A stretch of DNA of 64,000 bases from a virus: the IMG/VR virus record IMGVR_UViG_3300050821_005065, positions 1 through 64,000 of that record. One strand, written 5' to 3'. Positions 10,530 through 45,431 of the stretch are shown here, in pieces. The notes under the pieces were generated by a model that saw nothing but the letters and a program-made list of their open reading frames with translations, did not search any database and had not been told where the DNA came from. How positions within the stretch are numbered: position 1 is the stretch's first letter; each line of letters begins with the position of its first letter. A program made the translations under genes and the position numbers.

Positions 10530-10548
10530 TTTCCAAAGGAGAAACCAC

Positions 10549-11520: not shown

Positions 11521-11559
11521 GCTGATCGTCGAATCTGGCGAAAGGAATAGGTCTTAGCC

Positions 11560-16973: not shown

Positions 16974-16996
16974 AAAGAGAAGAGAGGAATCACAAA

Positions 16997-17377
16997 ATGA
17001 AACGAATCCTGCTGGCAGTTCTGGTTCTCATGCTGGGGGTAGTCGCACAAGCCCAGGCATCATCGCCTTGCGGAGTTGTACCGACTCCGGGCGCTCCGCA
17101 TGTGTGCTTTAGCTGGTCCGCGTCCCCGACGCAAGGCGTGGCCTATAACGTCTACCGGGCGACGACTTCCGGTGGAGAGAATTACGCGACTCCGCTCAAC
17201 GCGGTGCCGCTGACCACGCTATACTTTTATGACACGACTGTGGTTGACGGAACAAAATACTTCTACACGGTGACCGCCGAGACTGGAGGTGCGCAAAGCT
17301 TGCCTTCTCCAGAGGCAAGCTCAATAGTCCCAGTGCCTCCTTCTGCCCCGACATCCCCCGCAGCTATCATTGATTAA
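16997..17377 (+). CDS. Single fibronectin type III domain protein with signal peptide
   Basis: MKRILLAVLVLMLGVVAQAQA|; WSAS...YNVYRATTSGG...YDTTV...YFYTVTA. Confidence 0.8.
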   Translation: MKRILLAVLVLMLGVVAQAQASSPCGVVPTPGAPHVCFSWSASPTQGVAYNVYRATTSGGENYATPLNAVPLTTLYFYDTTVVDGTKYFYTVTAETGGAQSLPSPEASSIVPVPPSAPTSPAAIID

Positions 17378-20712: not shown

Positions 20713-23289
20713 TTGAGCACTTTGCCCATTGGCGCAATCGGAGGTGATCCCCAAGGGGGGCAAGAGACCGGAGGCACGCCGCAAAACGTCGCGGAAACTT
20801 CATGGCAGAATCCCTCACAGGCCAGTCCAGAAGACGACAGTTACTTCTCGACCCAAGGTGTATCCGATGACGATCAGAAGATGCTCAAAGACATTATCAC
20901 GGACTACCGCTCGAACTGGATGCAGGACCGGATTGAACGATTAGCGCAGTGGATGGCAAACCTACTCTACTGGAAAGGCGTGCAAGTTCTCGGCTGGGAT
21001 GCAAGTTCAAACTGCTGGTATGACGCGCTCTCGTGGGCCAGAAACAACAGCCAGGAATCGGGGGAAGATACCGACCTTGAGCGCTGGATCAATCCTCTGG
21101 TGCTGATGTTCTGCAATGTATTCACGGCCACCATGAGCCAGGGGATTCCAAAGCCCGTGATTAAGCCAGAGAACGCCAACCCGGAACTACAGGACATCGT
21201 AACCGCCAAAGCCAGCAAAGAAGCCATCGACATCATCCGCAGCAAGAACGAATTCACCAAGATCATTTTCTCGATTTACGAACTCTTGTTTCTCTTCGGC
21301 TCTTACTTTCGCTACACCCGTGCCGTGATTGACGGCAAAATGTTCGGCTACGAAGAGCGCCAGCAGTTTGCAGACATGGAGATCCAGACCGGCCCGCATT
21401 TTACCTGCCCGAACTGCGGCACGGAAAGCCCAGCAGAATCTCCCGATGGAATGAATTGTCCAAGCTGCGGCGCGTTTATGGGGCAGGAAAGCTACTACGC
21501 CGCCGGAGAAGGCAGCCGTACAAGCCTGAAATCCGCCGGGACGCAGAAGATTCCGAAAGCTGGCGTGAAGTGGTCTCTGCACTCTCCATTAGAAATTGAT
21601 TGTGACCCGAAGTGCAAAGGGACTCACCCTCTGCGGCAGACGGCGATTCTCGCGAAAGATTGCGAGATCGATTTCTCCGAAGCCTGCACCATGTTCCCAA
21701 AGTTTAGAGACCGGATCAAACCAGGCGCGGGCTCGCCAACGACGCCCAACGCCGATCTAGAGCGCATCAACCGCATCATGGCAATCAGCGCGCTTGGGGG
21801 AATCACCGCCGACAACGAGATGGTGAATCCAACCTACTCGGAAGTCTGGGTACAGCCGTGGGCCTATGCCAAGAAAAAAGATTGGGACTTCGCCGACCGT
21901 ATGCGCGCCAAGTTTCCCGAAGGCTTAAAGATTTCGATGGTGGGAGAAGAAGTCGTAGACATCCGCGCAGCCGTCCTCGAAAAAGAGTGGAGCCATTGTG
22001 CGCTGTATGCCAATCAAGGCGTCTACTGTGCGGCCTTGGCGAATACGGCAGTTAGCTTCAACGCCAGATTCAATCGGACGATGTGGATTCTGGACGACTG
22101 GGCGGCGCGGGCGGCCCTTGGATTGAATCTCGCCAATGCGTCGATGGTCGATACCGAGAAAATGAGCGGGAAGCCGGTTCCGGCAGGCACCTTAACCCCC
22201 GTGCCGATGAAGATCAACGGGCAGAATATTCCGATGGAGCAAATTGTTGCTCACTACGAATTGCCCATCAACGCGGCCCTCTGGAACTACCCCATGATGC
22301 TCATGACCTTTGCAGAATTGATCTTGGGGATTCCGCGGCAACTCGGAGGACAGGGAACGCAGGACGATGTTGAAACGCTCGGCGGCCAGCAGTTGCAACT
22401 CGCACGGTCGCTCACCACACTGAAGCCCTACTTCAAGAACGTGAAAAACGAGTCTGCCGAAGCCGACCAGAACGCGATTGAGTGCTTGCAGAATTTGATG
22501 AAAGTGGGTGCGGTCAAAGAGATTCAGGATGTCATCGAGTCGAAGGGTGGAGCCTTCCAGAACCAAACCGTCAAGTGGGACCAGATGACGGGGAACGTGA
22601 GAATTTCCGCGGATGAAGATCAGGAACTCCCAGCCTCGCCCGAAGAGTTACGCACAGCCGTGCAGATGATGTTCCAGGAATTGACCAAAGGCAATCCGGC
22701 GGCCGCGAAGTGGTTCGACGTGCCGGCCAATCAGGACCAGGCCCTCAGTTCGATGGTTCCTGACAGCGTGAACCCTACAGAAGCGCAACGGCTCAAGACC
22801 GAGGCCGACATTCAAACCATCGTGGATCAGGGCGTGCAAGTCTCCTTGAACCCGGATGGCAGCCAGGGGACACAACTTCCAGTTCAACCCGAAGCGTGGG
22901 AAGACTACTCCGTCGCCAAAGAAATCGTACAGCGTTACATGCTGGAAAATTATCAGCTACGAACCGAAAAGCCGGATCGCTGGCAGGCTCTGTCGCAGTA
23001 TTACTCGCAACTCAAACAGAGCGAGATGCAGGTTGGGCAAGAGCAGGCACAGAGACAGCTTGCGGTTACGACCGCTGGTCAGCCGAAGCCGCCTGCGCCC
23101 GACCCGGCGATTCAAAGCGAATTCCAGCAGCAGCTTCAGGCCGCACAGCTTGCGATTCAAACGCTCGTGAGAATTGCTCAAGTAGATCCAGTCTTGACGG
23201 GCGGACAGATGAAAGATCAAGTCGCCGCCAGCAAGGAAGTAATCGATTCGACCGTGAATGCCGCCAAATTAATGAATGGTGGGAAATAA
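20713..23289 (+). CDS. Portal protein with Zn-ribbon insertion
   Basis: 858 aa, first in the portal-scaffold-capsid order; helical podovirus-portal features, Gln-rich C-terminal tail; CPNCG...CPSCG insert. Confidence 0.8.
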   Translation: MSTLPIGAIGGDPQGGQETGGTPQNVAETSWQNPSQASPEDDSYFSTQGVSDDDQKMLKDIITDYRSNWMQDRIERLAQWMANLLYWKGVQVLGWDASSNCWYDALSWARNNSQESGEDTDLERWINPLVLMFCNVFTATMSQGIPKPVIKPENANPELQDIVTAKASKEAIDIIRSKNEFTKIIFSIYELLFLFGSYFRYTRAVIDGKMFGYEERQQFADMEIQTGPHFTCPNCGTESPAESPDGMNCPSCGAFMGQESYYAAGEGSRTSLKSAGTQKIPKAGVKWSLHSPLEIDCDPKCKGTHPLRQTAILAKDCEIDFSEACTMFPKFRDRIKPGAGSPTTPNADLERINRIMAISALGGITADNEMVNPTYSEVWVQPWAYAKKKDWDFADRMRAKFPEGLKISMVGEEVVDIRAAVLEKEWSHCALYANQGVYCAALANTAVSFNARFNRTMWILDDWAARAALGLNLANASMVDTEKMSGKPVPAGTLTPVPMKINGQNIPMEQIVAHYELPINAALWNYPMMLMTFAELILGIPRQLGGQGTQDDVETLGGQQLQLARSLTTLKPYFKNVKNESAEADQNAIECLQNLMKVGAVKEIQDVIESKGGAFQNQTVKWDQMTGNVRISADEDQELPASPEELRTAVQMMFQELTKGNPAAAKWFDVPANQDQALSSMVPDSVNPTEAQRLKTEADIQTIVDQGVQVSLNPDGSQGTQLPVQPEAWEDYSVAKEIVQRYMLENYQLRTEKPDRWQALSQYYSQLKQSEMQVGQEQAQRQLAVTTAGQPKPPAPDPAIQSEFQQQLQAAQLAIQTLVRIAQVDPVLTGGQMKDQVAASKEVIDSTVNAAKLMNGGK

Positions 23290-25132: not shown

Positions 25133-26425
25133 ATGCCCGCACCCAATTACACAACTGCTCAAAGCCAGTTGCCGCTCATGCTGCAGATCGTTGCAGACAC
25201 GGTGGCGAAGTCCCAGAATCTTGATCGAGGCATTGACAAGCGCTTTCAGGCAGTCAGCTCGAAAGATATGGGTAAAGAGAAGTATCGTCATCCCATTCAG
25301 TTTGACGAAGGCGGCCAGGGATCAGCCTACAACCCCGATGGTGGCGGCTACCCTCAAGGCACCGGGCCGGAATACCAGCAGTTCATCGTGACCCCAATTC
25401 CGATCCTCGTTGCTTTCGCCGCAACCGAATTGCTCGAGCGCATCGAAAAATCGCAAGGTCTCGAAATTGTCCAGCCCATCTCCCGCATGGTTGGTGGCGC
25501 CAAGGACAAAATGGCCCACATCCGCAACACCTTGACCCAAAGCTATAACCAGTTCATCGTGGGCACCGTAGATGCTTCTTATGCCGGCGGAAATACCGTA
25601 CAGATGGCCTCCAGCCCCTTCGGAAACCGTCTGCTCGATTTGAATAACCAGTATCTTGTGACCGACGCCTCCGGCCAGTACAACGTGCTCGGAAGCCCCG
25701 CAGTGCTGGCAAAGTCAAACTCCACCGGCGCCACTGTCGATACCGTACAGCTGGACGCCGCCCCTGCCGGACTCGTGGCCGGTTCTTCCTTCCTGTTGAT
25801 GGGTGCGACCTCTGGCGCTCCCCTCGGCCCGCAAGGTCTGCAGTACATGATCTCAACCTCGAACGCTGGCGATATGGACGGAATCTCGCGCAACCTGGCT
25901 CAAATGCAGGCTGCGGGAGTGAACGCTTCCAACTCCACGCTCACCCTGGGCATGATTCTCGCCCTCGATGTGCGGCAGCGCCAGAATGCAGGCCCGGATG
26001 CGGAAGGGGGACCACGGTTCTACTACACCTACATCTCCCAGCAATCGACCGCACGTCAGCTTGGATTCGCCAAAACCACGCTGATGAGCCAAGACGGCAA
26101 GCTCGACAACTTCAACATGTCGCCCGATCTGAAAGGCAAGTGGATGATCGGCACCGACGAAGTGGAAGTCGATACCACCGCGGCCAACAACACGATGTAC
26201 TGGGTCAGCGCGAATCACCTGAAGCGCGTTCGCTATCCCGGATCGCAAAAGTTTATTCCGGGCACGCTGAACGGGCTGTGGTGGCCACGTTACTCGGGGG
26301 GACAGCCGACCTCAGAACGCGACCTTTATTATCAGGACGCATACAATTACTATACTAATTTTCCCTGGTCACATGGTCTGATTCACTCGCTCGGGGTAAC
26401 TCCTGCTATGTCAGCGCCGGTTTAG
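25133..26425 (+). CDS. Major capsid protein
   Basis: 430 aa, strong AAGGAG RBS, follows the scaffold and is followed by a terminator; GLQY...GISR segment. Confidence 0.8.
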   Translation: MPAPNYTTAQSQLPLMLQIVADTVAKSQNLDRGIDKRFQAVSSKDMGKEKYRHPIQFDEGGQGSAYNPDGGGYPQGTGPEYQQFIVTPIPILVAFAATELLERIEKSQGLEIVQPISRMVGGAKDKMAHIRNTLTQSYNQFIVGTVDASYAGGNTVQMASSPFGNRLLDLNNQYLVTDASGQYNVLGSPAVLAKSNSTGATVDTVQLDAAPAGLVAGSSFLLMGATSGAPLGPQGLQYMISTSNAGDMDGISRNLAQMQAAGVNASNSTLTLGMILALDVRQRQNAGPDAEGGPRFYYTYISQQSTARQLGFAKTTLMSQDGKLDNFNMSPDLKGKWMIGTDEVEVDTTAANNTMYWVSANHLKRVRYPGSQKFIPGTLNGLWWPRYSGGQPTSERDLYYQDAYNYYTNFPWSHGLIHSLGVTPAMSAPV

Positions 26426-29568: not shown

Positions 29569-30360
29569 ATGCCTCCGCAAGCCACGCCATTGCCGAATAC
29601 GCTGGGAGATGTGGTATCCCGCTGCCAATCTTTGTTGGCTGGGAATACATCTTCAGTAGGTCTCTACCAAAGACCCTACTTAGTCCCATTTATCCAGCAA
29701 GCGTATGAGGACATGGCGTCCGTAATCAAGCTGGCCTCGGGCAAGAATTTTGAGATGAACATCCAATTACTCAACGTTCCCATCGGGCAAAACAGCTTAT
29801 ACCCATACCAGAGCGCGCAGTACAAAGATCCCAACACTCCGAATAGTCCGGCTACCCTTGGGCCGCTGTTCGGGTTGTACGATCCTTTGCGACTCTGGGC
29901 GAAAACTACAGGTGCGCTGCCGCAATACTGGACACGCTGCAACGGGCCGATTGACAACCTGCCGTTCGTGAATCCTCCAGGGATCACGCCGGGTTCATTC
30001 TCGACCACAATGTTTTGGACCTGGCTGGGGAATCAACTGCTCGTCACGCCGGTCGCCAGCGCGATCGACATACAGGTCTATGGGCGATTTGATCCGCCGC
30101 CGCTGCAGAAGGATGAAGATAAACTCCTGCTCTATCCGAGGATGACGGCAGCTTTGGCTTATAGCGCTTCCGCCCTCACCGCGGTGGAACGGTCGAATCC
30201 CCAAATCCTGCAAGGCTATGCCGTTCGTGGGGAAGCGATGGTCGATAACATCGTCGCCGACATCATCAAGCAGACACAACGCTATCCCCGAAGATTGGCG
30301 AAGATGGGCGGCTCGAACGGGAACTTCTGGGGATGGGGCTGCGGCAGTTTTAGCAATTAA
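29569..30360 (+). CDS. Putative head-tail adaptor (tail tubular protein A-like)
   Basis: TLGDVVSRCQSLL...FIQQAYEDM, WLGNQLLVTP and ALAYSA patterns; lies before the nozzle gene. Confidence 0.65.
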   Translation: MPPQATPLPNTLGDVVSRCQSLLAGNTSSVGLYQRPYLVPFIQQAYEDMASVIKLASGKNFEMNIQLLNVPIGQNSLYPYQSAQYKDPNTPNSPATLGPLFGLYDPLRLWAKTTGALPQYWTRCNGPIDNLPFVNPPGITPGSFSTTMFWTWLGNQLLVTPVASAIDIQVYGRFDPPPLQKDEDKLLLYPRMTAALAYSASALTAVERSNPQILQGYAVRGEAMVDNIVADIIKQTQRYPRRLAKMGGSNGNFWGWGCGSFSN

Positions 30361-30801: not shown

Positions 30802-33800
30802 TTGATCTGGTTCGGGAAACCTGTTCCGCAGAATCGGATGTTGGGACAGGTCGATAGTGACGATCCCACCAACCTTCCGGCTGGTCTCGCCTCGCTTGCC
30901 AAGAACTTTGAGTGGACGCGGGATACAGCCGGGCCAACATGCGCTAACTCTCGCTGCGGTTGCAACACCGCCATGCAATGCCTCGACCATGCCGCGCCTG
31001 TAACTGGCTTGCTCGGCTTTGTCTATTCTCCAGAATCGGCCAGCGATCCGTTCTTTCAACTTCCACTAGCTTTTCAACCGACCGAAGGCTCGCAGTACGA
31101 ATCTCCAGTCGGCACAGGCCGCATGGTAGCCTTCCCGCCGACAAACTTTCAGGAACCATCCCTCGCCAGTCTCGGCGTTCCTCCCCATGTGATATCCGCC
31201 AGCGCAGGGAATCGAGTCTTCCAAGCGTATAGCGACTTGAGTATCCCAGCCGGCGGATTGGCGAACCTTGATCCCAAAGCGAAGACCATGAACCCGTATG
31301 GGATGAAACCAGTCGGATTCTATTGGGTTCCAAACACTCCAGTCTTGCAAGGAGAAATCTGCTGCCCGCCGACTCCGACCACTGGAAACGGCCATACCTA
31401 CCAAGCGCAGAACTCAGGCACCACCGGAGCGAACGCACCTATCTTCCCCACGGGAGAATCCGCGACTGTCAACGACAACGGCATCATCTGGAAAGAAAAT
31501 ACGATGGTGATTGCCAACCGCCTGCCACCTCCCGATGAGGCACAATTCATCGTAATCAATAGCGGCGGAACCATCCCGGCGAACATCCGTGTCTATGCGG
31601 TCATCACATTTCTCAACTCTATCGGTGAGACATTGCCGTCGCTTCCACACTTCATCGCGACCGTGGTCAACAATTCGCAGGTGAAAATCGAGGTGCCGTC
31701 GCTCGCGCAATTGCCCGCATGGATACGAAATCTTCCATCCCAATATGTTCCAACCCAGGCAAATGTCTACGCCCAGGAAACCGGCATCGCCTCACCCGCG
31801 CCAGCACTTTCTACCTATTATCAGCTAGGAGGGTCGGTTGCCCTTGGATCAACTGTTAATTTCGTTCCCGGAAGCGGTACAGCTCCGCCCGTCTCGAATA
31901 CCGCAAGAATTACTCCAGGGCAGTTGCCGACTCCGACCGTTGAACCTGAGATGCAAGTTTCTCCTGCGGGCTCCGTCGTTACTCCTCCCAGCCTGCCTAC
32001 TATTTCCTTGGCGCCCAGCGCGGGAAGCGCATTTACCGCAGGCCAAGTCATCGACGTAGCTTTAACCTTGGTCAACGCGAATGGAGAAACCACCAGAGGC
32101 CCAGCTCCACCGATCAAAATTATCAACAATGGCGATGGCATCTTAGTTTCTTTGGCTGCGAGTTATGGGCCCACGGTGACCGGAGTCAACATCTACCTCT
32201 CGACCAATGGATTTTCCGCTGGGACTGGATCCTTGGAATCCGGTTCGCCGTTTGCGGTGGGATCTGTAACAACGTTGTTAGCTTTTGGGCCGTCCACGAC
32301 ATTGCCGACGACGAACACGGCAACGCTCCCCTTAGGAACGTTCCCTGCAGGCCGTGATGTATACGTCGCGCAAACTTATACCAATGCGAGTGGGGAAACT
32401 CCGCTCGGGCCAGCTAACTTCATCCTCAATACCGCTGCCGACGACTCTATTTTAGTGACGGTCGCGGTTCCACTCGGACCGGACAACGAGCAACTTTACA
32501 CGATCACCAGCGTGGGAATTTATGAAGCGGATGTAGCCACAGGAACTGCTGCGCCAGCGCCATCCGCTTTTGCCTTGGTCGGCTATTACCAACCGGGAAA
32601 TCAGCCTTTCATCTTGAATACAGCAACGGGACCGAATCCGCCCATCACGAATACCACGGGCCCAGGCGGCGCGATTGTGGCGGATACCGCGACTGGGGGA
32701 GCCAACGGAGGGCAAGGCTATCGCTATGCCGCCTTTGGCTGGATCAACCAAATGGAAACTTTCTCTGGCTTCACTCTGGCAAGCGTAGTGAAAACCATCA
32801 TTGATGAAGACGGCTGGGAGATTGGAGCGTTCAACGTCCCCACAGGAATGCCGAATGTAGTTGGGAGATACGTCCCCTTCTCAGGCGCCGACGGATCACA
32901 GGCAGGGCCATTCAACTGGATTGGGTTAGTGAATCTCATTGTCCCCTCACAGAACGTTGTCTTCCCGATGCAGACCTTGATCGACACGGTTCTGCAGAGC
33001 GCCACAGTATTTCTCGACAACGTGACCACGCAGGGAACCTTCAACTTCACCGATACCTATTTGCAGTCGGCTAACAATGTCGATGACCGGTTGCAACTCG
33101 CGATTCCGCCGCAGGGCGTGCGCGTGGATTATCTTGAGAGTGTAGATCGGCTGGCTATCACTGGGGTGCCGGGATTCGCCAGCGGGCCGTGGATCAGCCT
33201 CGCGGAAGACTACGAAAGTTTCTATGGCGCGCTCAGTCCGGTTCCTGTCACCACGACTGGTGAGCGATGTTTCGGAGTGACCGACAAATACAAAGGCATC
33301 GTCTTCGCCTTGATGGAAGAGAGCGGTTTCGTACTCAATGCGAATACCGGAGCCCCGGCAAGCTGGGCCGCAACCCGGCGCTGGCAGGGTATGGGGCCGT
33401 GCGGCTTTCGGGCGTGGGACGCGAACGGCAAATTCATCATCTTCGCGCACCGCTCGGGGCTTTACAAATATGACGAGTCCGACCCCGACATGATGCAGAA
33501 GGAAATCCCGAAACTCTGGTCCACGATCAACTGGGCCGCGGGTGAAACCATCTGCGTCTACATCGACGAAGATACCCATACGGTGCATTGCTTAGCGCCC
33601 ACGGGAGCCAGTACAGTACCCAATCAGGACTTTGTTTTAAGCTATATCGAAGGCTGGAACAATCCGATCCACTTCTCAACCTTCTCGGGAAAAGAAATCT
33701 CGATGGATGCAGCGCGCCGCTGGTCACCGCATGACCGAGCAGCCTTCGTCGTGTTGCGCATGAAACGCACACTGCCACCGGGTGGGAACCAGTTCATTGA

Positions 33801-34296
33801 CGGCCCCACTTTCGAGACGTTGCCGGACTCCAGCTTTCTTTTGACGCAACTCTTATTCGCTTCGAGCGCAAACGATGGCACAGTGCAAGCGCGGACTCCG
33901 GGAATCTTCTCCGACAACGGCGGATACATTGACTGGCAATACGAGACCATGAGTTCTGGAATGATGCAGGCAGTGTGCAAGCCAGAGGGGTTCAACCTGA
34001 ACGCCACGGGATCAGGGGTGATGATCGCTTCGTTTATCGCCAGTCGAGAACAGGTGACCGATGAAGGCGGAGAACAAAAGCTGATTATCGAAGAGGAGGA
34101 AGTCGAAGTCGATCCCATTCCTTTGAGTCCGAAGCAGGTATCTGGGATCACGCGCAAGTGCAATCAGTCGGCGGTGAATGAGTTTTGGAGAATGAGGTTT
34201 CGAGGGGACCGGCAGCCGGGGACGTGGGTGAGTTTGAAGATTGTAACCCCCTATGTAATTCCTGTTACGCCGGGAAGGGATGCCGGGGACCGATGA
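30802..34296 (+). CDS. Tail nozzle (tubular protein B-like) with inserted Ig-like repeats
   Basis: TTG start after a G-rich RBS; beta-propeller-type C-terminal half (GMGPCG...IIFAHRSGLYKYD); three NxxGET repeats. Confidence 0.7.
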   Translation: MIWFGKPVPQNRMLGQVDSDDPTNLPAGLASLAKNFEWTRDTAGPTCANSRCGCNTAMQCLDHAAPVTGLLGFVYSPESASDPFFQLPLAFQPTEGSQYESPVGTGRMVAFPPTNFQEPSLASLGVPPHVISASAGNRVFQAYSDLSIPAGGLANLDPKAKTMNPYGMKPVGFYWVPNTPVLQGEICCPPTPTTGNGHTYQAQNSGTTGANAPIFPTGESATVNDNGIIWKENTMVIANRLPPPDEAQFIVINSGGTIPANIRVYAVITFLNSIGETLPSLPHFIATVVNNSQVKIEVPSLAQLPAWIRNLPSQYVPTQANVYAQETGIASPAPALSTYYQLGGSVALGSTVNFVPGSGTAPPVSNTARITPGQLPTPTVEPEMQVSPAGSVVTPPSLPTISLAPSAGSAFTAGQVIDVALTLVNANGETTRGPAPPIKIINNGDGILVSLAASYGPTVTGVNIYLSTNGFSAGTGSLESGSPFAVGSVTTLLAFGPSTTLPTTNTATLPLGTFPAGRDVYVAQTYTNASGETPLGPANFILNTAADDSILVTVAVPLGPDNEQLYTITSVGIYEADVATGTAAPAPSAFALVGYYQPGNQPFILNTATGPNPPITNTTGPGGAIVADTATGGANGGQGYRYAAFGWINQMETFSGFTLASVVKTIIDEDGWEIGAFNVPTGMPNVVGRYVPFSGADGSQAGPFNWIGLVNLIVPSQNVVFPMQTLIDTVLQSATVFLDNVTTQGTFNFTDTYLQSANNVDDRLQLAIPPQGVRVDYLESVDRLAITGVPGFASGPWISLAEDYESFYGALSPVPVTTTGERCFGVTDKYKGIVFALMEESGFVLNANTGAPASWAATRRWQGMGPCGFRAWDANGKFIIFAHRSGLYKYDESDPDMMQKEIPKLWSTINWAAGETICVYIDEDTHTVHCLAPTGASTVPNQDFVLSYIEGWNNPIHFSTFSGKEISMDAARRWSPHDRAAFVVLRMKRTLPPGGNQFIDGPTFETLPDSSFLLTQLLFASSANDGTVQARTPGIFSDNGGYIDWQYETMSSGMMQAVCKPEGFNLNATGSGVMIASFIASREQVTDEGGEQKLIIEEEEVEVDPIPLSPKQVSGITRKCNQSAVNEFWRMRFRGDRQPGTWVSLKIVTPYVIPVTPGRDAGDR

Positions 34297-34694
34297 GCAA
34301 CCACGCCAACTTGGGATTGATCGTAGAGAGGGAAGAGGCACTTGGCTTCCTCGATACTGATTTCTTTGACGCGGGAAACATAGTCGCAGGGCTTCTTCTG
34401 GTAGAACGGCCACATCTCCAATCGGTGTTGGGAAATAATTGTTTCACCAATGGAGTCAACCTGCCAGATGCCTTCCTTCCCGAGATGGATGACCGTCTGC
34501 TTAACTTCGACACGCTGTATTCCCATGAAATCCCCAACGTGCTTTCCGTCTTCCCAATAGGGAAGACCAGCGAGGGACAGTTCGGGCACAACGATTTCTT
34601 TTGGAAAGAAATAAGTGCGGAACGGCCAAGTTCTTACCGCGGCAGAAGCGGCTACTCCACCGACCAAGGTACGCAGGAAGTTTCTACGATTCAT
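34251..34694 (-). CDS. Twin-arginine-like leader followed by a mosaic of capsid-, nozzle- and portal-like peptides
   Basis: MNRRNFLRTL N-terminus; three ungapped matches to structural proteins encoded in this window (see findings). Confidence 0.7.
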   Translation of the reverse strand: MNRRNFLRTLVGGVAASAAVRTWPFRTYFFPKEIVVPELSLAGLPYWEDGKHVGDFMGIQRVEVKQTVIHLGKEGIWQVDSIGETIISQHRLEMWPFYQKKPCDYVSRVKEISIEEAKCLFPLYDQSQVGVVAHRSPASLPGVTGIT

Positions 34695-34712
34695 GCCGCA
34701 TAGTCTACTCTC

Positions 34713-34982
34713 ATGAGGATCAAGATGCCAAGAGATTTTGTGTTTATTGACTACGCTTACGCTGCTCGTACTGCACTGGCTGTTTGTTATCGGCGAGACC
34801 GCAAAGGCGAGTTAACCATATGTGGCATGATCGAAGAAAGCCGAATGCCAGCTAAGGCGTTCGCGGAGCGCGTACGGCGCGCATTCGGCGATAGCGACTA
34901 CTATATTTCTCCCGCAACCTTTCAAAATGTAGGAAATGGACGATCCGTCGGCGCGATTATTCACGACGCTCTACTCTCATGA
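34713..34982 (+). CDS. Stand-alone truncated terminase nuclease-domain homologue
   Basis: FVFIDYAY...Y.....G...E.RM.A..FA and Q..G.GRSV align with the TerL C-terminal domain encoded at about 47506-47830. Confidence 0.7.
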   Translation: MRIKMPRDFVFIDYAYAARTALAVCYRRDRKGELTICGMIEESRMPAKAFAERVRRAFGDSDYYISPATFQNVGNGRSVGAIIHDALLS

Positions 34983-35818
34983 GTCAAACCATTCAAGGCA
35001 ACCAACTCGCGCTCATCGAAAGCTTCGTCCGCACCTTGGCACCATCTGCCCGAGACGATGCGCGGCAATTGCTGGTCAATCTCTACGACAACCTCACCGC
35101 ACTTTCCCCCGGCGGGAACTTGATCCGTATCGGAGGAGTGCAAGAAAACGCCAGTCAGCCGCCTTCAGGAGTGGTTCATTCCGTCAGTGCAGCCAATGGA
35201 GTCGCCACAGTTAATATCACGAATCCTCCAACACCAGGTGGCACGCAAATCTGGCACCGGATCAGCTATTCCCCACTGAAAAGCTTTACCCAGAACGTGA
35301 CGACGCTGGAGCCGACGACCGCAACCTCCGTGACCATCCCGCAGTCGGGAGTCAGCACGTTTTATCAACTGGAATCTTCCTTCGATAAGAAAACCTGGTC
35401 AAAAGCAACGCTATCCTCGACTGAGACCATTGACGCTGGCTTAGTTGCCTCGCAAGCGATTGAACCCGCCGCAGTGTTCAATCAGAGCAATTTTGCCTTC
35501 GTGAATTCGCAGGCGACTGGATCGGGCGCAACCGTAACCGTGAATGGATCTGGTGGAACCTTTAGCCCTTACACTGCGGTCAAGGGCAATCAAACTTTCC
35601 TGAGACCATCCGCCACGATTGTAGGAGTAGAACTCGGAGCCAATCAGTTTGTGGGCTACGACCCGAAAGCGAAACAGTTTCAACTACTCCCGACTCTCGC
35701 GGGAGTGTTACCTGACAACTTAGAGCCTGTGGGCTATGTGCAAGCGGGAAGCAGCACACCGGGCGGTGGAGGAACGACTGGTGGGAATGGTGGGAGATTG
35801 AGCGCGGTGCAAGTATGA
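34979..35818 (+). CDS. Putative tail-associated structural protein
   Basis: Follows the nozzle; Thr/Ser/Gly-rich, Fn3-like segment, Gly-rich C-terminus. Confidence 0.6.
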   Translation: MSQTIQGNQLALIESFVRTLAPSARDDARQLLVNLYDNLTALSPGGNLIRIGGVQENASQPPSGVVHSVSAANGVATVNITNPPTPGGTQIWHRISYSPLKSFTQNVTTLEPTTATSVTIPQSGVSTFYQLESSFDKKTWSKATLSSTETIDAGLVASQAIEPAAVFNQSNFAFVNSQATGSGATVTVNGSGGTFSPYTAVKGNQTFLRPSATIVGVELGANQFVGYDPKAKQFQLLPTLAGVLPDNLEPVGYVQAGSSTPGGGGTTGGNGGRLSAVQV

Positions 35819-38597: not shown

Positions 38598-41500
38598 TTG
38601 GACGCCGCCCAGCAGTTTACCGACATCCCTAGCGGGTACAAAGTTCTCCCACCCGCCGCGCCTCTGGATCAATTCTCCGACGTTCCAGACGGCTATAAAG
38701 TTCTTCCGCCAAAAGCGCCAACCGCACAGCAATCCTCCGCCGCAATCGGGCGAGTTACCAGTCCGCTATCGCCTGCCCCGATACCACCCGCTTCTCTCCC
38801 GCCATTCTCCTTAGGTGCTCCTCCGTCAACGCCGCGTTCGACCGCAGAGGGCTTGACCACCGAGCAGCAAGAGCGCCGTGCCGGAATGCCACTTGCAATC
38901 CAGCCGGCCAGCGGCAGTTTAGAGAACACTCACCCCGAACAGGTCGTCGCACAACCCCTAACCAATCAGACCCTAGCCACTCCGCCCAAGCCGGCTCCAA
39001 TCGATACCTCGCTTGGGCCGAACGCTCCCTTTACCCCGGAAGAAGTTGCGGCACGCCATCAAGAGAAGCAGGCCGATGAAGCCGCCGATAGTTCCATGCT
39101 GGCAAATTACAGCCGAGCCGTAGAAGCCGGTAGGCGAATGGGATCAAAAGCGGGCGAACAGATTGCAGCCTTGGGGACGCCGATTGAAAAGGGCTATGGG
39201 GATCTGACTGACGAGAACCGCGGAGCCTTTGAGAAAGAGCACCCTGCCGCTGCGGGCATCGGGAAAGCCGCTGGCGGATTCGTGGGCCAGATGGCCGCCG
39301 ACCCGGTTACCTATTTGTTTATGGGGAGTAGCGAACTGGCGCATCCCATGCTCGACCGGATTATCAGTTCGGGATTCCGGTTTGGTCTGGGCGTCCACGC
39401 CGTCAACGCTGCGCGTGATCTGCAAAAGAATTGGAATGATTACACTCCCGAGAAACGGTATGAGGTCGCAACCGAAGCGGGGCTAAGCGGATTGCTGGCT
39501 GCTGGCGCCCACCAGATCAGAGACTTTCTCAAAGGACCGTATGAAGCTTTACCTACTGAGCCGACCGAGCGCGCCGAATCTCTCTTCCGGAATCTGGTCC
39601 ACAAAGCCGGCGGAACCGTGGGAGAAAATCCTACTCTTGAGGAAGCCAACGCCGCATACCGATCCGCGATCGCCAACCTGCACCCAGACGTAAATCCAGA
39701 AGCGGCCGAAGATGCGCGCAACCTGAATGACGCATGGGCCAAGCTGAAGCAGTCGGGGCGTTTCACCGGGAAACAGCGATTCAGTGATGTGCCGGAAGGC
39801 TACAGAATTCTTCCGCCTGCCGCTGGAGCAGAACAGCCCACCGTTCACGCCTCGAACGATGTCGAAGAGCTCCGTGCCTCCGCCGAACGCCAAGCCCCGA
39901 AAATAGGAGATGCGGTTAGTAGCGCCACTGAAGGCGTTCCCGGCACCAAACTGGAAGCCGTGCGCGACTCCAAAGACTCTGACCGAATCACAGATAAAGC
40001 CGAGCGCCAAGGCGTCGAACCTTCCCAGATCAAAGACATTGCCGCGGCGAAGGTCACCGTCCCGGATCAGGAAGCCGCCAATCAGGTATTAGAAAATCTT
40101 CACCCCGAGATGCCCGTTGAGGAAGTCAACGGCATGGTGACAGGGGAACCCGGTAAAAACGCGGTGCGTCAAACGCAAGCCGTCGTATCGACGGATCAAC
40201 CGGGCGAACCTGTCAAGAACGCCGAAGTGCTCTTACAGACGCCGGAGATGCACAAAGCCACGGAAACCACTCATGATGACTACCGTAAAGCTCAGGAACT
40301 ACGCGCTGCGGGTAAAGAAGCCGAAGCCCAGGCTGTCGAAAATCGTATCGCAGGCGAGCACGAAGAGGCCCACCAAGCGGCCATTGCACGACAGGAGGAA
40401 TCAAATGCCATTCAAGAGCGAAGCGCAGAGGGGGTTCATGGAAGCGCACAAGAAGAAGATGGAGGCCAGCGGAGTCAACATGAAAGAGTGGGAGAGCGCC
40501 AGCAAGGGCAAGGATCTTCCGCCGCGCGCCCCCAAGCCGCCCGACAAGAAAAAGAAGAAGCCCCCCGCGCCCCCAAGCCGCCCACCCGAGGAGTTTCAGG
40601 GGCCAATGACCTAACTCATAATCTCAAGAACCAAGCAATTGAGATTCGTGACTCTCAAGGCAACTGGAAGCAAGGCACCGTTCTAGCCGACAGCCTTACC
40701 CAAGGGGGAGATCGGCCACGTCGATTGCGCGGAACCTTCGCCGATGGGACAGAATTCGACAACATCAAACTCTCAGACGTTCGCAGGCCGGAGGTGCAAA
40801 CAGGTTCCGAGGGAATCGACTTCGACGGAACCCTGTTCACCGAGCGTCCCGATGGATCAATCGGCGAACCCATCCCAGAGCGGATCGCAAGCTTAAAAGA
40901 ACGCATTGCCAATGGAGAGGAAGTAGTAATCGAGAGTCACCGAGCGCGTCAACCGGGAGGAGTTTCAGCCATTCAGGACGCGCTGGAGAAAGCAGGTTTG
41001 CCGCGCCTGCCAGTCTCCGCCAAGAAGAACGTAGAACCCACTCTCGTTGACGACGAAAAACAAAACGCTCCGGGAGTCACCCAACAAAAAGTAGCGACGA
41101 ATCGAAATACGCCGTTACCCGATGTGCCGCGCGCCCCACGCCCGCCCAGCTACGGTCCTCCCAAGAAAGATTTTCAAGGCTCCGTCCCTGCGGAGAGTTT
41201 GGGCTTCAATCACACGATCGATACTGGTCCCGACATCGGCGCAAAGGCTCGCGTAGAGACTGAGAAGCGTATGGGTGGGCCTCTCCCCCGTGGGCAGGCA
41301 GAGCGGAGAGCGCCGGAACCCAAGCCCGTTGACACGTCCTCTGAAGCCATCAAAGCCGCCTCCAACCCAGAACGCGATACCGACATCATGGCGAAGCTGA
41401 AAGAGGAGCATCCTGATTGGTCTTTAAGTCAACGGTTACAAGAGGCGGCGAAACTCGCCAATCCCCCCAAGGAGAAGCCCGTTGAAATCTCGTCAAAAGA

Positions 41501-44500
41501 TGTATCGAAGCCTGTACCGCAAGCAAGTGAAGCAGGAAAGAAAGAAACTGTTCAAGTCAATCAGGGTGCTGGAGGCGCTGATAAAGTTGGACCCGGTACT
41601 AAAGGCGAAATAGCTCCGGGTAAAGTCGGCGAAATGAAAGTTGCCGACCTGAAGGTTGCGCCGAACAAATTCCAGTACAAACTTGGCACGGATGCGGCAG
41701 GGACTTCGACTCTTCTCAAAGAGGCGAAGACGTTCAATCCCGATCTGGCAGGAACCATTTCAGTTTGGAAAGACCCCGCGGATGGCAAAACTTATGTGGT
41801 CAACGGTCATCACCGCTATGAACTGGCGAAGCGTACGGGACAGGATGAAGTTGCGGTGCGGCACATCGTCGCGCAGGATGCGGCAGAAGCGCGCGCGGTC
41901 GGAGCTCGGCAGAACATCGCTGAAGGTCGCGGCACTCCTGTGGATGCAGCCAAATTCTTTCGCGATACCAGCATCACCCCCGAAGACCTCGACAAGCACG
42001 GTATCTCGCTCGGCGAAGCTACCGCCGCGAAAGGGCTGGCACTCTCGAACCTTGACGACTCGCTATTCAGCAAAGTGGTAAATGGCGATTTGCGCGAAGG
42101 CCGCGCCGTCGCTATCGGAGAGGCGACCAAAGACCCGGCAGAGCAGAAAGCAATTCTATCGCTGCTTGAACGCAAGGAGCGCATCGGGGCGAAGGTCTCG
42201 GACGATACGCTTTCCGAGTTGATTCGTCTTGTCAAGGGCGCAGAGCAGAAGACAGAGACCACAGCAAACTTATTTGGCACACAGGAAATTAACCGCTCCC
42301 TTGCTCTCGAAAAAGCGGAAATCTCCGCGCACATCAAGCAGCAGTTATCGAAGGATAAAAAGTTGTTTGGGTTTGTCGCGAAGGAGGGGCGCGCGGAGGA
42401 ACTGGCGCGCGCTGGCAACAAGATCGACGTAGAGAAGTCCAAGGAAATATCGACTGGCGCAGCTCAGGCGGAAGAGGTTTATAATAAACTGAGTGCGCGC
42501 GGAGGGCCAATTGCAACCATCCTCGATGAAGCCGCCCGAAAACTCGCCGACCGTGAAGGCTCCCCGGCCTCCATTAAATCCGACGCCTACGAGCGCATCC
42601 GGGAAGAGGTATCCCAAACTCTCAGGGGAACCGAAAGAGAAGTTCCTGAAAGAATGGAAGCGGGAGCAGGACCAAGTAAAGAAGTAGAACCGACGCTCCC
42701 CGGCATGGAGCATGTCCCCGCCGAACGTGCCGAAGCGGTCTCCGAACAACAAGGCAAAGACCTCACCGCCAAACTCACCGAGCCGCCGAAGTCCATCGAA
42801 TCGAAAGCGGGTGAGATTGAGCAACGTTCGCCCCTCTTCCGCGACACGGAAGCGAATCCGCAAAAGGGATTATTCGGCGGCGAATCCGGATCCCTCGACA
42901 TCTCCAAACTTTCCCCCTCTCACATCAAGCAACAGTACGACCAAGCCGTCTCTGAATTCATTTCCGGCAAACTGAAAATCGGCGACAAGTATCACGATGT
43001 TGCCAAGCACGATGAGACCGTAGCCAACACGCTTCACCTGGTAGACAACGCTCCCCGCTATTTCAAAGCCAAAGCCGACGCCAATCTCAAAGGAGTCACC
43101 GCTGGATTAAACGACGATCAGATTCGTCTTGCGTCCATGATGGCCGATTCGGACTCGCGAGACTACCTGAAAGCCAACAAGCCCGATGAGTTCAAGCAAG
43201 CCACCTCCGACCCGGCAGTGATGGCCGCTGTAAAGAAGTTTGAACCGCTCCAGCAGGAACTCACCAAAGACCGTCAAGCGTTGGGCTGGCCTGTCCGCAT
43301 GAGCATGGAAGCCATTGAGCAGCCAGACGGAACTTTCAAAGTAATGGACCGGAGCGGCGCGGACCTAGGCGACTTCAAGACTGCGAAGAAAGCCAACGAG
43401 TTCATTCAGGAGAATGGTGAAGTCGAACCGCATCTGAAGCGCACCTACCCCGAGCACTCGAAGAACCCTCTCCCTGCCGAGACTGGTGTAGGAGATTTCA
43501 CTCAAGCTTTCCCCCACGAAAAAGGCTTACGTCCGCCGAAGATGGACAAGAAGTCCCGCGAAATGTCGGCGGAATATCATTACGAACATGGGCGCAAAGA
43601 TTTCTCTGGCTACACCGAGAGCTTCAAGCAGACCAAAACCGCCGTGCTGAAACAGAAACTCTTTGACGACTTTGTAGACCGGGCAACCCCGTACTCCGCC
43701 GGGACCGCGCAACCTCCCAAGATCGAATACAACGGGAAGACCTACTACCGTCCCGACATCGTGCAGAAAGCCAAAGAAGGTGGAACCAAGCTTGAATCCT
43801 ATGCCATGTATGATCCCACGCGCGGCGAAAAGTTCATGATCGCGAACCCCGAAGAAGGCTGGGCCACACTCGCCACCGGGAAGTCGGGAATCAAAGCCAG
43901 TGACCGATTCCTAGGTCCAAAGCCCGTAGTCGATGCGATGGAGAACTACGACACGTCCCGCGGCGGGGAATCTTCAAAGCTACGCCACTTCTTTCAAGAG
44001 CAGATCGTGGGACTCTTCGGCCCAGTGGTTCACATCAACAACATTGTCCGACGAATCGGGCAGGCAACCGGCATGGGAACATTTGATCCGCGCTCCTGGC
44101 CTTCGATCGCGCGTGTGATTGCCAGTCCAGAACTGAGACAGCGGGTGATGAGTGGAGTTGATGACGCCACCATCGACATGCTCACCAAGTACGGAGCCTA
44201 CACCGACTGGGGCGATATCGGGACGGTCAACAAATATATCGGCGGAAACCTGAATCCGGCATCATGGGTTAGATCCTTTGGTAAAGGTGTTCTGTTCGAT
44301 CCCAAGTTCGCAAAGGGCTGGGGCGGTCTCGATCCGAAAGCGCGCGTAGTGGTCGCGGATTATTTCAAAGAGCACTTCCCGAAGATGACCGACGCCGAAG
44401 TAGCCAAGGCGATCGAAGATGGATTCGGAAATTACAACCGCGCCAACTGGACTGAGCGCCAAAGACTTCTTGCCAAGTTCACTCTTTTCCCCGGCTGGGA

Positions 44501-45431
44501 TGCAGCCTCCGCAAAATGGTTTCTGCGTCATCCCTTCCGCGCCGGCGTGGCCGGTTCGCTCGTAGTCCTTGCCATCAATCGGGCCTTGAATGCTCTCGGG
44601 AAAAACAAAGACCAAGACGCCAACGATCTCAGCTATGTCCACTTCGGCGATAGGAAACTTTCTTCCGGCTTGATCATGGATAACATGGGAAACCACTTCA
44701 TGTCGCCCGTGCTGGGAGCGTTGCAAGCGAAGTTGAGTGGGGATGACGTTGCTGCAGGAGCCACCGAAGGAGCGCAGAGAGGCAGCGCAGCCCTTGCGGG
44801 AACTTTGGCTGGACCCGTGGTCGAAATGGTTGCGGATCAAATCTACAACCGGAAGTATGCTGGCGGAGCCTCGGAACTGGTAAAGCCGGAAGACAAATAC
44901 ACTCCCGGCACCTGGTTGCCGAACGTGGAACTGGAGAAGCGTGCGGCCTTTGCTGCCCTGAAAGGCACACCAGCTCTCAATCGCTTTATCAATCCCAAAG
45001 GGGAATGGGATTGGGCGCAAGGCATCGGCGGCGGAGTGCTCGGCGTCACCAATTACAAGTACGGCGCAGAGGAACGGTTCAAGGCCAACGTCGCCAAAGC
45101 CGCGACCTATGGGCAGACATTGAACCAGCTTGCCATGAAGGAACCCGAAGCCGCGGCCAAGTTCGCCAGCGACCCGCAGCGCGCAACCTACCTGATGTTC
45201 CACGATGACCTTGAGCAGATGGCGCGTGATCTGAAAGAACTGGATTCCCAGATCGAGCGAGTACGCAGCGCGGACCTGCCGCACACCGAACGGCAGAGCA
45301 TTTTGGAAGACCTGAAGAACAACCGCAACACCCTGCTCAAAGCGGCCGATGGATTGAACGACGCCTTAAACGAAGCGAAGAACCAATCTCGCAAGAAGCA
45401 AACGGATTACTGGAAGAGCAAAGTACAATGA
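38598..45431 (+). CDS. Giant polyvalent ejection protein (J-like, RelA/SpoT-like, HAD-like and ParB-like domains)
   Basis: 2277 aa; AYRSAIANLHPDVNP; KDSDRITDK...KDIAAAKV...EVLLQTPEM; IDFDGTLF; VVNGHHRYE. Confidence 0.75.
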   Translation: MDAAQQFTDIPSGYKVLPPAAPLDQFSDVPDGYKVLPPKAPTAQQSSAAIGRVTSPLSPAPIPPASLPPFSLGAPPSTPRSTAEGLTTEQQERRAGMPLAIQPASGSLENTHPEQVVAQPLTNQTLATPPKPAPIDTSLGPNAPFTPEEVAARHQEKQADEAADSSMLANYSRAVEAGRRMGSKAGEQIAALGTPIEKGYGDLTDENRGAFEKEHPAAAGIGKAAGGFVGQMAADPVTYLFMGSSELAHPMLDRIISSGFRFGLGVHAVNAARDLQKNWNDYTPEKRYEVATEAGLSGLLAAGAHQIRDFLKGPYEALPTEPTERAESLFRNLVHKAGGTVGENPTLEEANAAYRSAIANLHPDVNPEAAEDARNLNDAWAKLKQSGRFTGKQRFSDVPEGYRILPPAAGAEQPTVHASNDVEELRASAERQAPKIGDAVSSATEGVPGTKLEAVRDSKDSDRITDKAERQGVEPSQIKDIAAAKVTVPDQEAANQVLENLHPEMPVEEVNGMVTGEPGKNAVRQTQAVVSTDQPGEPVKNAEVLLQTPEMHKATETTHDDYRKAQELRAAGKEAEAQAVENRIAGEHEEAHQAAIARQEESNAIQERSAEGVHGSAQEEDGGQRSQHERVGERQQGQGSSAARPQAARQEKEEAPRAPKPPTRGVSGANDLTHNLKNQAIEIRDSQGNWKQGTVLADSLTQGGDRPRRLRGTFADGTEFDNIKLSDVRRPEVQTGSEGIDFDGTLFTERPDGSIGEPIPERIASLKERIANGEEVVIESHRARQPGGVSAIQDALEKAGLPRLPVSAKKNVEPTLVDDEKQNAPGVTQQKVATNRNTPLPDVPRAPRPPSYGPPKKDFQGSVPAESLGFNHTIDTGPDIGAKARVETEKRMGGPLPRGQAERRAPEPKPVDTSSEAIKAASNPERDTDIMAKLKEEHPDWSLSQRLQEAAKLANPPKEKPVEISSKDVSKPVPQASEAGKKETVQVNQGAGGADKVGPGTKGEIAPGKVGEMKVADLKVAPNKFQYKLGTDAAGTSTLLKEAKTFNPDLAGTISVWKDPADGKTYVVNGHHRYELAKRTGQDEVAVRHIVAQDAAEARAVGARQNIAEGRGTPVDAAKFFRDTSITPEDLDKHGISLGEATAAKGLALSNLDDSLFSKVVNGDLREGRAVAIGEATKDPAEQKAILSLLERKERIGAKVSDDTLSELIRLVKGAEQKTETTANLFGTQEINRSLALEKAEISAHIKQQLSKDKKLFGFVAKEGRAEELARAGNKIDVEKSKEISTGAAQAEEVYNKLSARGGPIATILDEAARKLADREGSPASIKSDAYERIREEVSQTLRGTEREVPERMEAGAGPSKEVEPTLPGMEHVPAERAEAVSEQQGKDLTAKLTEPPKSIESKAGEIEQRSPLFRDTEANPQKGLFGGESGSLDISKLSPSHIKQQYDQAVSEFISGKLKIGDKYHDVAKHDETVANTLHLVDNAPRYFKAKADANLKGVTAGLNDDQIRLASMMADSDSRDYLKANKPDEFKQATSDPAVMAAVKKFEPLQQELTKDRQALGWPVRMSMEAIEQPDGTFKVMDRSGADLGDFKTAKKANEFIQENGEVEPHLKRTYPEHSKNPLPAETGVGDFTQAFPHEKGLRPPKMDKKSREMSAEYHYEHGRKDFSGYTESFKQTKTAVLKQKLFDDFVDRATPYSAGTAQPPKIEYNGKTYYRPDIVQKAKEGGTKLESYAMYDPTRGEKFMIANPEEGWATLATGKSGIKASDRFLGPKPVVDAMENYDTSRGGESSKLRHFFQEQIVGLFGPVVHINNIVRRIGQATGMGTFDPRSWPSIARVIASPELRQRVMSGVDDATIDMLTKYGAYTDWGDIGTVNKYIGGNLNPASWVRSFGKGVLFDPKFAKGWGGLDPKARVVVADYFKEHFPKMTDAEVAKAIEDGFGNYNRANWTERQRLLAKFTLFPGWDAASAKWFLRHPFRAGVAGSLVVLAINRALNALGKNKDQDANDLSYVHFGDRKLSSGLIMDNMGNHFMSPVLGALQAKLSGDDVAAGATEGAQRGSAALAGTLAGPVVEMVADQIYNRKYAGGASELVKPEDKYTPGTWLPNVELEKRAAFAALKGTPALNRFINPKGEWDWAQGIGGGVLGVTNYKYGAEERFKANVAKAATYGQTLNQLAMKEPEAAAKFASDPQRATYLMFHDDLEQMARDLKELDSQIERVRSADLPHTERQSILEDLKNNRNTLLKAADGLNDALNEAKNQSRKKQTDYWKSKVQ
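40405..40614 (+). CDS. Nested out-of-frame small basic protein (MPFKSEAQR type)
   Basis: CAGGAGGAATCAA-ATG RBS inside the giant ORF; 69-aa Lys/Pro-rich product. Confidence 0.6.
   Translation: MPFKSEAQRGFMEAHKKKMEASGVNMKEWESASKGKDLPPRAPKPPDKKKKKPPAPPSRPPEEFQGPMT

Follow-up and report, generated by a model that had tools for sequence, protein, structure and literature searches.

The viral genome IMGVR_UViG_3300050821_005065, that of a soil phage, is a complete record of 72,157 bp with direct terminal repeats (97 bp by our own count). The window referred to throughout is the whole stretch of DNA that was analysed, the first 64 kb of that record. Two small genes of opposite orientation are lodged among its late genes: (i) ORF A (34251-34694, minus strand; 147 aa), a member of a large uncurated phage family in which a leader resembling a twin-arginine translocation (Tat) signal is followed by a hypervariable body, and (ii) ORF B (34713-34982, plus strand; 89 aa), in which the first half of the RNase H-like nuclease domain of the large terminase subunit (TerL) recurs as a diverged copy. 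An earlier sequence-only reading of the window took the pair for a cassette of capsid, nozzle, portal and terminase fragments, made to titrate immune sensors or to poison the assembly of competing phages. Its perception of structural-protein fragments was substantially right, and is not demonstrable from one genome: similarity that is undetectable within a single genome can emerge once the family has been assembled, which is a caution of wider use.

The geometry of the locus is as that reading described it. Both genes lie, at the coordinates claimed, between a nozzle-like gene and the next late gene, and 18 bp separate their ATG codons. The nozzle-like tail protein (30802-34296, plus strand; 1164 aa) is encoded downstream of an SU10-adaptor-like gene (29569-30360), a neighbour whose match to PF24175 (SU10_adaptor; E 3.5e-4) falls below the cut-off. 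The name 'nozzle' is the label given by the sequence-only reading and is putative; the protein has no family match in Pfam or PHROGs. Its gene and ORF A overlap tail to tail by 46 bp at their 3' ends. On the other side, the ATG of the next late gene (34979-35818) overlaps the TGA of ORF B in the tetranucleotide ATGA. The window holds a single copy of the ORF A family. Two DNA sequencing runs, which may derive from the window's own source sample, contain the ORF A/ORF B stretch without differences, and their contigs span both ends of the ORF B unit.

The leader of ORF A, its family and its expression

The leader is encoded by 34587-34694 (minus strand; residues 1-36, MNRRNFLRTLVGGVAASAAVRTWPFRTYFFPKEIVV) and combines a twin-arginine motif, a Gly/Ala-rich hydrophobic stretch and a conserved WPFR-x-Y-x-FP block. 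It begins N-R-R-N-F-L-R and continues with TLVGGVAASAAV, which fits the twin-arginine consensus (S/T)-R-R-x-F-L-K followed by a moderately hydrophobic h-region. Positions M1, R3, R4, F6, R21, P24, F25 and R26 are invariant in an alignment of 36 sequences, and R3, R4 and F6 are also invariant across 119 aligned members. Residues 1-19 of ORF A match PF10518 (TAT_signal) with E 0.0078 and 16.6 bits, against a gathering score of 22.7; TIGR01409 scores 13.1 bits against a cut-off of 16.7. Among the 119 members, 32 reach E<=0.01 with PF10518 (best 2.6e-4), always under the gathering score as far as shown.

Relatives of ORF A are recognised by this leader. A search of 5.8 billion proteins returned one full-length relative, P0002, at 40% identity, together with about 40 small proteins that match over the first 32-35 residues only, at 60-80% identity. 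A profile of the 36-residue leader finds 1037 proteins at E<=1e-3, of which 706 also pass E<=1e-10, among 1.84 billion representatives of clusters formed at 50% identity; the best 150 of these matches are all 61-170 aa long with the motif at the N-terminus. A scan of IMG/VR gave 58 family loci. In 45 of them the pattern M-[ND]-R-R-x-F-L-x-x-L-[IV]-G-G-V-A-A-x-A-A-V-R-T-[WF]-P-F-R-V-[YF]-S-F-P marks 47 ORFs of 81-173 aa; in the other 13 it overlooked the family gene, and two of these genes resurface below as 'leaderless' matches in a control made of small ORFs. Overall the family proteins measure 61-173 aa, with a leader of about 30-35 aa and a body of 50-140 aa.

The sequence-only reading had named purifying selection among homologues as a mark of a real gene, and the leader bears it. 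In 42 distinct genes the entropies at codon positions 1, 2 and 3 of the leader are 0.74, 0.54 and 1.63 bits: third positions are near saturation while first and second positions are conserved, so the leader is conserved at the level of the protein and not of the DNA. The leader is under strong purifying selection.

The pattern occurs at three loci in 185,579 species genomes, all in metagenome-assembled genomes (MAGs) of Acidobacteriota; TatC is encoded by all three MAGs and not by the phage. In the data searched, the family is seen only in phages and prophage-like regions of Acidobacteriota. Neither ORF A nor ORF B belongs to a Pfam, PHROGs, NCBIfam or PADLOC family, apart from the sub-threshold TAT_signal match; PADLOC (2023) also gave no family for eight further members. 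In 119 members, Pfam finds no domain besides the leader. The toxin domain and neighbouring immunity gene that would mark a polymorphic toxin are not recognisable here, and the bodies resemble structural proteins instead. No description of the family was found in the literature searched, a search that left supplementary files aside.

The position of the family gene shifts between phages: it lies between the TerL and portal genes, beside the major capsid protein (MCP) gene, beside the nozzle gene or by a giant virion gene, and mostly no more than 10 kb away from the genes for MCP, portal and TerL. The gene calls behind these neighbourhoods are crude, with wrong-strand ORFs in places, and serve for rough context only. 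Leader genes stand in tandem copies at two loci (L036, 10001-11121, and L048, 10001-10778), and one database protein, P0044 (162 aa), holds two leader matches. One of the L036 copies shares 91% identity over a 47-aa stretch with a segment of a 255-aa ORF lying about 1.2 kb upstream, which points to a recent local duplication.

ORF A is preceded by a sigma-70-like promoter (34702-34731, minus strand; TTGGCA-18-TAGACT, 9 of 12 consensus matches) whose -10 element ends 7 nt before the ATG, so that a leaderless mRNA is predicted. The sequence-only reading had proposed leaderless expression of both genes, from hexamers that are indeed present on the two strands (TAGACT 7 nt before the minus-strand ATG, TAGTCT 6 nt before the plus-strand ATG). 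For ORF A the proposal is borne out by the family: in 12 of 43 distinct upstream regions TANNNT ends 6-7 nt before the ATG, often as TGcTAgAAT, and no other offset from 0 to 49 has more than two such regions. A Shine-Dalgarno-like motif occurs in 12 other upstream regions and none has both signals; since the two sets never coincide, the family is probably expressed either as its own leaderless unit or within a head-gene operon. For ORF B the proposal is not supported: the promoter scan gave no plus-strand site, and the stop codon overlaps the start of the next late gene.

By consensus and comparison, ORF A is thus predicted to have its own leaderless promoter, antisense within the late operon. 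It ends within the nozzle gene, and a terminator scan of 33800-35400 found no terminator-like site, so that ORF A has the promoter of its own expected of a moron and lacks the terminator. In one metatranscriptome, 34277-34427 is covered by one 151-nt contig of undefined strand; carry-over of DNA is possible, so it is no proof of transcription, and the want of cover elsewhere has no meaning either.

Structural-protein segments in the family bodies

Behind the uniform leader, the bodies have little in common: by blastp, what follows the leader in 171 members sorts into 94 groups unrelated to one another. When 218 bodies were compared by tblastn with the related loci and the window genome, 85 matches at E<=1e-3 lay outside family ORFs. 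They hit 32 ORFs of at least 150 aa, comprising 15 proteins of MCP clade 1 (homologues of the window MCP, 25133-26425), 7 of MCP clade 2, 5 portals (homologues of 20713-23289) and 5 others. Clade 2 consists of seven proteins of 257-469 aa, some of them ending at contig ends, and its identity as MCP is our own reading. Individual alignments, convincing in themselves, pair a body with the MCP N-terminus (39% identity over 83 aa, E 4e-15), the MCP C-terminal end (61% over 28 aa) or the portal (43% over 49 aa).

A stricter comparison used hidden Markov models (HMMs) built solely from leader-free proteins of at least 200 aa, here called clean HMMs, against 213 sequences (212 distinct family proteins and ORF B). 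At E<=0.01, 44 of the 213 match MCP, portal, TerL or nozzle, and 23 do so at E<=1e-5; reversed and shuffled versions of the same set give 0/213 each. The four MCP clades account for 21, 12, 3 and 1 matches (37 in total), portal for 4, TerL for 4 including ORF B, and nozzle for 1, with some sequences matching more than one model. Under identical settings, 43/213 of the family match, as against 7/4566 other ORFs of 60-180 aa in the same DNA and 3/4566 of their reversals. Two of the seven are family genes overlooked by the pattern, and one is ORF B. The difference from other small ORFs ties the fragment content to the leader.

In at least a fifth of the members the body is detectably made up of diverged copies of short, highly conserved segments of MCP (the commonest source), portal, TerL or nozzle. 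The sequence-only reading had pointed to profile searches as a check. Curated libraries are empty in this respect, whereas purpose-built models and profile alignment do match, with no shuffled sequence among the matches. It had also proposed a search of related phages for syntenic ORFs of variable fragment content; the search here gave the 58 loci, with their shifting gene positions, hypervariable bodies and the mosaics described below.

The parent proteins are identified to different degrees. The window MCP (25133-26425, plus strand; 430 aa, HK97 fold) is of the main source type; its AlphaFold2 (AF2) model has a pLDDT of 52.8 and 126 Foldseek matches in the Protein Data Bank (PDB) at E<=1e-3, and all among the matches listed are phage capsids or encapsulins. 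The putative portal (20713-23289, plus strand; 858 aa) was assigned from its family profile, which has only two matches at E<=1 among PDB sequences, both phage portals (E 0.0034 and 0.013); its homologues come after TerL in related loci. TerL itself (46624-48252, plus strand; 542 aa) matches phrog_979 with E 1.7e-29 and is of the parent type of ORF B.

The copied segments cluster in hot spots. In the MCP these are the N-terminus (model positions 2-69), 212-281 (containing W..L.R..YPGRL), 274-323 (containing NVDQxAAxENL, which appears in family bodies as YVHPxQAxAxKxLG) and the C-terminal end; in the portal they are 36-67 and 477-524, and in TerL 8-39 and 279-302. They cover invariant parent residues (MCP G246, R253 and Q303; TerL W291, D299 and G301). 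Some bodies are mosaics: L051f0 and P0144 join TerL 279-302 to MCP 212-251, and in P0030 and P0120 two MCP segments have changed places relative to the parent protein. These coordinates and mosaics come from a first HMM set that had taken in four family ORFs and ORF B. Among 13 loci with an MCP of the matching clade, the locus's own MCP ranks first in five, second in three and third to eleventh in five; the fragments thus derive from the MCP clade of the carrier phage itself. The WPFRVYSFP block of the leader was considered as a copy of the YPGRL motif and rejected, the leader profile aligning to the MCP alignment in hhalign with a probability of 0.13%.

ORF A itself is a faint example. Set against the 32 large proteins of the window by blastp, it reaches 21.9 bits at best, where 100 shuffles have a median of 20.0; ORF B reaches 18.9 bits, which equals its shuffled median (18.9). 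Copies of proteins encoded in this very window, as the sequence-only reading had aligned them, are therefore not upheld. Comparison with relatives gives more. Residues 31-93 (34416-34604, minus strand) align with L018 MCP 255-324, the region from the YPGRL to the NVDQxAAxENL motif, with 26% of 70 aa identical; 2 of 300 shuffles attain its score of 26.9 bits. The alignment starts with P-K-E-I-V-V-P-E-L-S-L-A-G opposite P-G-R-L-I-T-P-Q-V-N-L-A-G, and the capsid-like segment is best called borderline. Against the phage's own MCP, residues 43-61 are 42% identical to 235-253 over 19 aa, which is chance level; G-D-F-M-G-I-Q-R opposite G-D-M-D-G-I-S-R is the only standout. Residues 103-122 match one portal position in three portals, weakly (E 0.083 at best, range 0.08-0.85), and the claimed nozzle piece is not significant (E 4.1). 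For ORF A the idea is upheld only in part, and for the family it holds strongly (44/213 against 0/213 in controls).

ORF A shares 39% identity with its counterpart in the closest relative (L001), for which the figures are 84% in the MCP and 66% in the nozzle protein; ORF A thus evolves far faster than its neighbours. The confidence of its structure in the ESM Atlas is low (pLDDT 0.45). A complex prediction of MCP with ORF A residues 30-147 scored 0.00, which weighs neither for nor against binding. The C-terminal tail of ORF A (HRSPASLPGVTGIT, 34251-34296) is conserved in P0002, and the opposite strand there encodes the conserved C-terminus of the nozzle-like protein (IPVTPGRDAGDR); as both strands code in this stretch, the conservation of the tail may be imposed by the nozzle gene and not by ORF A.

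ORF B and the surrounding genome

The similarity of ORF B to terminase emerges from several kinds of comparison. Aligned by hhalign with a 14-sequence TerL alignment, residues 8-87 pair with window TerL 294-400 (probability 89.7%, E 1.8e-6), and jackhmmer seeded with TerL recruits ORF B. Pairwise, ORF B is 28% identical to L052 TerL over 89 aa, with 46.2 bits reached by 0 of 300 shuffles; among TerL proteins, those of the relatives L052 (46 bits) and L048 (42 bits) are nearer to it than the one encoded in the window (18 bits). The AF2 model (pLDDT 64.8) has the element order beta1-3, helix, beta4, two helices, as in the first half of an RNase H-like domain. Its top Foldseek match in the PDB is the D6E large terminase (E 8e-3, TMq 0.56), its matches in BFVD include many terminases together with small uncharacterised phage proteins, and in the ESM Atlas it adjoins terminase nuclease clusters (feature score 0.90, structure TM 0.80). 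Profile and predicted fold together show that ORF B copies, in diverged form, the first half of the nuclease domain of TerL. Here the sequence-only reading has held up well.

Characterised TerL nucleases have three catalytic acidic residues. ORF B retains the Asp aligned to the invariant TerL D299, within an I-D-Y motif, has S-P-A where its relatives have S-P-D, and ends before the invariant D467, so that its acidic set is incomplete. At 89 aa it has no ATPase domain, and no Tat-like leader. It is nonetheless counted with the same phenomenon as the family bodies, because the start of the TerL nuclease domain recurs as a family fragment.

The protein search found no homologue of ORF B besides itself, and the gene is absent from every other family locus. 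The closest relative is without it, and there the two flanking ATG codons are 18 bp apart. Two copies of the 14-nt direct repeat TCTACTCTCATGAG bound ORF B, the left one (34704-34717, plus strand) including its ATG and the right one (34970-34983, plus strand), 266 bp downstream, including its stop codon and the ATG of the next late gene. The repeat has only these two matches in the window at up to one mismatch, and none in 100 shuffles. With these repeats at its borders, ORF B is a recent insertion of 266 bp, by which the start region of the late gene that follows was duplicated; as its stop codon overlaps that start, it is probably read with the late operon. The notion of a conserved two-gene cassette has to be given up in favour of a lineage-specific insertion.

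Elsewhere in the genome, a Pfam scan took in 20 proteins outside the morphogenesis region. The phage encodes a GroEL/Cpn60-type chaperonin (691-2430; PF00118, E 4.8e-46). One region of a 2277-aa protein (38598-45431) is RelA_SpoT-like (E 3.4e-6); this protein also matches DnaJ weakly, and its counterparts, 48-68% identical, adjoin family genes in L001, L037 and L052. A 362-aa protein (48456-49544, minus strand) with a RyR domain (PF02026, E 3.7e-6) is the first of a block of minus-strand genes. Past the window, near the right end of the genome (G000, 69141-71593), lie two further products, a protein with a helicase C-domain and an N6/N4 DNA methylase (PF01555, E 5.5e-19). Six late proteins (4146-17377; 126-1318 aa) begin with canonical signal peptides of Sec type such as MKRLLLIFALLCGSAFG. 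Several have 17-37 Cys and one has a CHB_HEX_C domain; it is unusual for a tailed phage to export fibre- or depolymerase-like proteins.

No PF00589 integrase is present in the complete genome, serine recombinases not having been searched for. The genome that contains L052, a complete 69-kb relative with direct terminal repeats, encodes a tyrosine integrase (E 2e-14; G004:C1:65269-65829). The group appears to mix temperate members with members lacking an integrase.

Proposed mimicry, competing explanations and known parallels

The reading preferred here is that the bodies are peptide mimics of the phage's own structural proteins, which the leader takes to the Tat machinery or the membrane and which play a part in conflict, as decoy or by interference; its probability is put at roughly 45%. 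The body peptides would vie with the genuine segments of capsid, portal or terminase for the binding partners of these, whichever they are, and the leader would bring the mimic to the host Tat translocon or the inner membrane. The most likely roles would be that of a decoy for host sensors of hallmark phage proteins, or interference with the assembly of co-infecting relatives. ORF B may be a further mimic or an immunity partner. A role in conflict is suggested by the accessory status of the gene, its mobility, its rapid turnover and its independent promoter. A bolder version, which we hold to be doubtful, makes the family a polyepitope counter-immunity gene of Acidobacteriota phages, in which a Tat leader is joined to shuffled copies of the least mutable capsid, portal and terminase motifs that occupy host sensors. 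The product would be made early from the leaderless promoter, the leader might tether sensors to the membrane or export them, and ORF B would likewise be a decoy, in its case a folded one that mimics the terminase nuclease.

Several points weigh against mimicry. One concerns the leader: an export signal sits badly with targets inside the cytoplasm, be they MCP, TerL or cytoplasmic sensors, the proposal of sensor titration or assembly poisoning leaves this most conserved feature unexplained, and no current reading explains it well. As a Tat signal it is itself imperfect, since its match to TAT_signal stays below the Pfam cut-off and a clear AxA cleavage site is absent; ahead of F-P, most members read V-Y-S, which could provide a -3/-1 pair, where ORF A reads T-Y-F, the usual Ser29 being Phe. 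About 80% of the members have no detectable fragment, and the prominence of conserved motifs among those copied is partly a bias of detection, which favours such motifs. In ORF A, nothing rises above chance against the window's own proteins, and its E-values with the clean HMMs are 0.64 (MCP) and 0.85 (portal). Only two pairs of bodies were usable for dN/dS, one giving omega of about 1.5 on very few changes and the other being saturated. Finally, ORF B may be a neutral recombination scar.

The first competing explanation is a Tai-like anti-phage defence, in which ORF A, antisense and constitutively expressed, would block the capsid or portal assembly of superinfecting relatives by means of its mimic peptides, and ORF B, read with the late operon, would be the counter-defence that spares the phage's own packaging. 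In phage phi80, as far as the excerpts of the paper go, the late operon is interrupted by the divergent defence gene taiEcA, and atiEcA, a small counter-defence gene, is expressed as part of that operon (PMC11364771), a geometry like that of ORF A and ORF B. A temperate lifestyle is probable for some carriers, given the tyrosine integrase in the L052 genome and a family member on a 221-kb Acidobacteriaceae MAG contig. Yet the complete window genome lacks a PF00589 integrase, neither gene has a PADLOC match and the Tat leader is again unexplained; ORF B cannot be a general immunity partner, because it is unique to this phage and the ORF A family is widespread. We regard this explanation as unlikely.

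It is distinctly unlikely that the leader alone is functional, for example as a membrane-active or Tat-interacting peptide, with the body a drifting spacer that collects pieces of head genes by local template switching or illegitimate recombination, and ORF B a similar scar. The 94 unrelated body groups among 171 members, the low Atlas pLDDT (0.45), the omega of about 1.5 in a close pair and the usual proximity of less than 10 kb to the MCP, portal and TerL genes would all be expected of such drift, and the 14-nt duplication around ORF B is a mark of microhomology-mediated insertion. Random scraps, however, would not be in frame and in sense orientation with the invariant residues of the parent motifs kept, nor joined in new orders from the same hot spots in independent members, and fragments at 35-60% identity have persisted for long without stops.

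A role as periplasmic placeholder has a very low probability. Here a Tat-exported protein with copies of the docking sites on capsid, portal or nozzle would keep large Sec-exported, Cys-rich, fibre-like proteins soluble until the real virion is supplied at lysis. The explanation makes use of the export leader and of the similarity to the phage's own clade, and six late proteins (4146-17377) do start with canonical signal peptides and have 2-37 Cys. Against it stand TerL, which is not a virion protein although its fragments recur, the many MCP fragments taken from the N-terminal arm, and a divergence (39% against 84% for MCP) ill-suited to a housekeeping chaperone. That the two ORFs are non-coding and their similarities noise, as scores at the shuffled median against the window's proteins and the want of curated family matches might suggest, is refuted for the family and for ORF B by the codon entropy of the leader, its protein-level conservation over hundreds of clusters, the significant TerL profile (hhalign) and fold matches of ORF B and the 0/213 of the reversed and shuffled controls.

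If mimicry is right, the family would be the first case found of a bacterial virus gene assembled from its own conserved structural motifs, and it would mark the segments of capsid, portal and terminase that matter in conflict between phage and host or between phages. The family is large (at least 1037 clusters), recognisable by its leader and uncatalogued in Pfam, PHROGs, NCBIfam and PADLOC, and thus offers many natural variants to test. Whatever the function, it is unusual for genes to evolve in this way, with a leader of export type kept extremely conserved and the bodies remade from genes nearby.

Three known kinds of system resemble parts of this arrangement, besides the phi80 genes. The first is the set of proteins by which bacteria perceive phages. 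A short linear peptide of the capsid suffices in the case of the Gol peptide of T4 gp23, which is sensed by Lit; CapRel senses capsid as well. Avs systems, in the excerpts available, sense terminase and portal. Capsid, portal and terminase, the sources of the family fragments, are thus protein classes known to be sensed; no phage-encoded decoy made of such peptides is reported in the literature searched, parts of which were excerpts.

The second kind is formed by the internal proteins of T4-type phages, which have a conserved N-terminal capsid-targeting sequence and hypervariable bodies, and are accessory and related to conflict. The ORF A family likewise has a short conserved N-terminal targeting peptide followed by a fast-diversifying body; unlike them, its leader is of the twin-arginine export type and not the T4 targeting and cleavage motif, and its bodies copy the phage's own structural proteins. 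Tat signal peptides are the third: the N/D-R-R-x-F-L-(R/K/S/G) motif, the Gly/Ala-rich h-region and the basic residues and Pro that follow are all alike, whereas the invariant R-x-x-P-F-R block is an addition of this family.

The excerpts of PMC11364771 do not portray Tai proteins as built from pieces of structural proteins or as equipped with Tat leaders, and ORF B is not conserved alongside ORF A. What the systems share is a small accessory gene, divergent and self-expressed within a late operon, beside an adjacent gene read with that operon (PMC11364771). Tai/Ati systems target phage morphogenesis and are carried by prophages and satellites, and the likeness to ORF A and ORF B is one of architecture. 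On that footing, Tai/Ati of phi80 would be the nearest architectural parallel to the locus.

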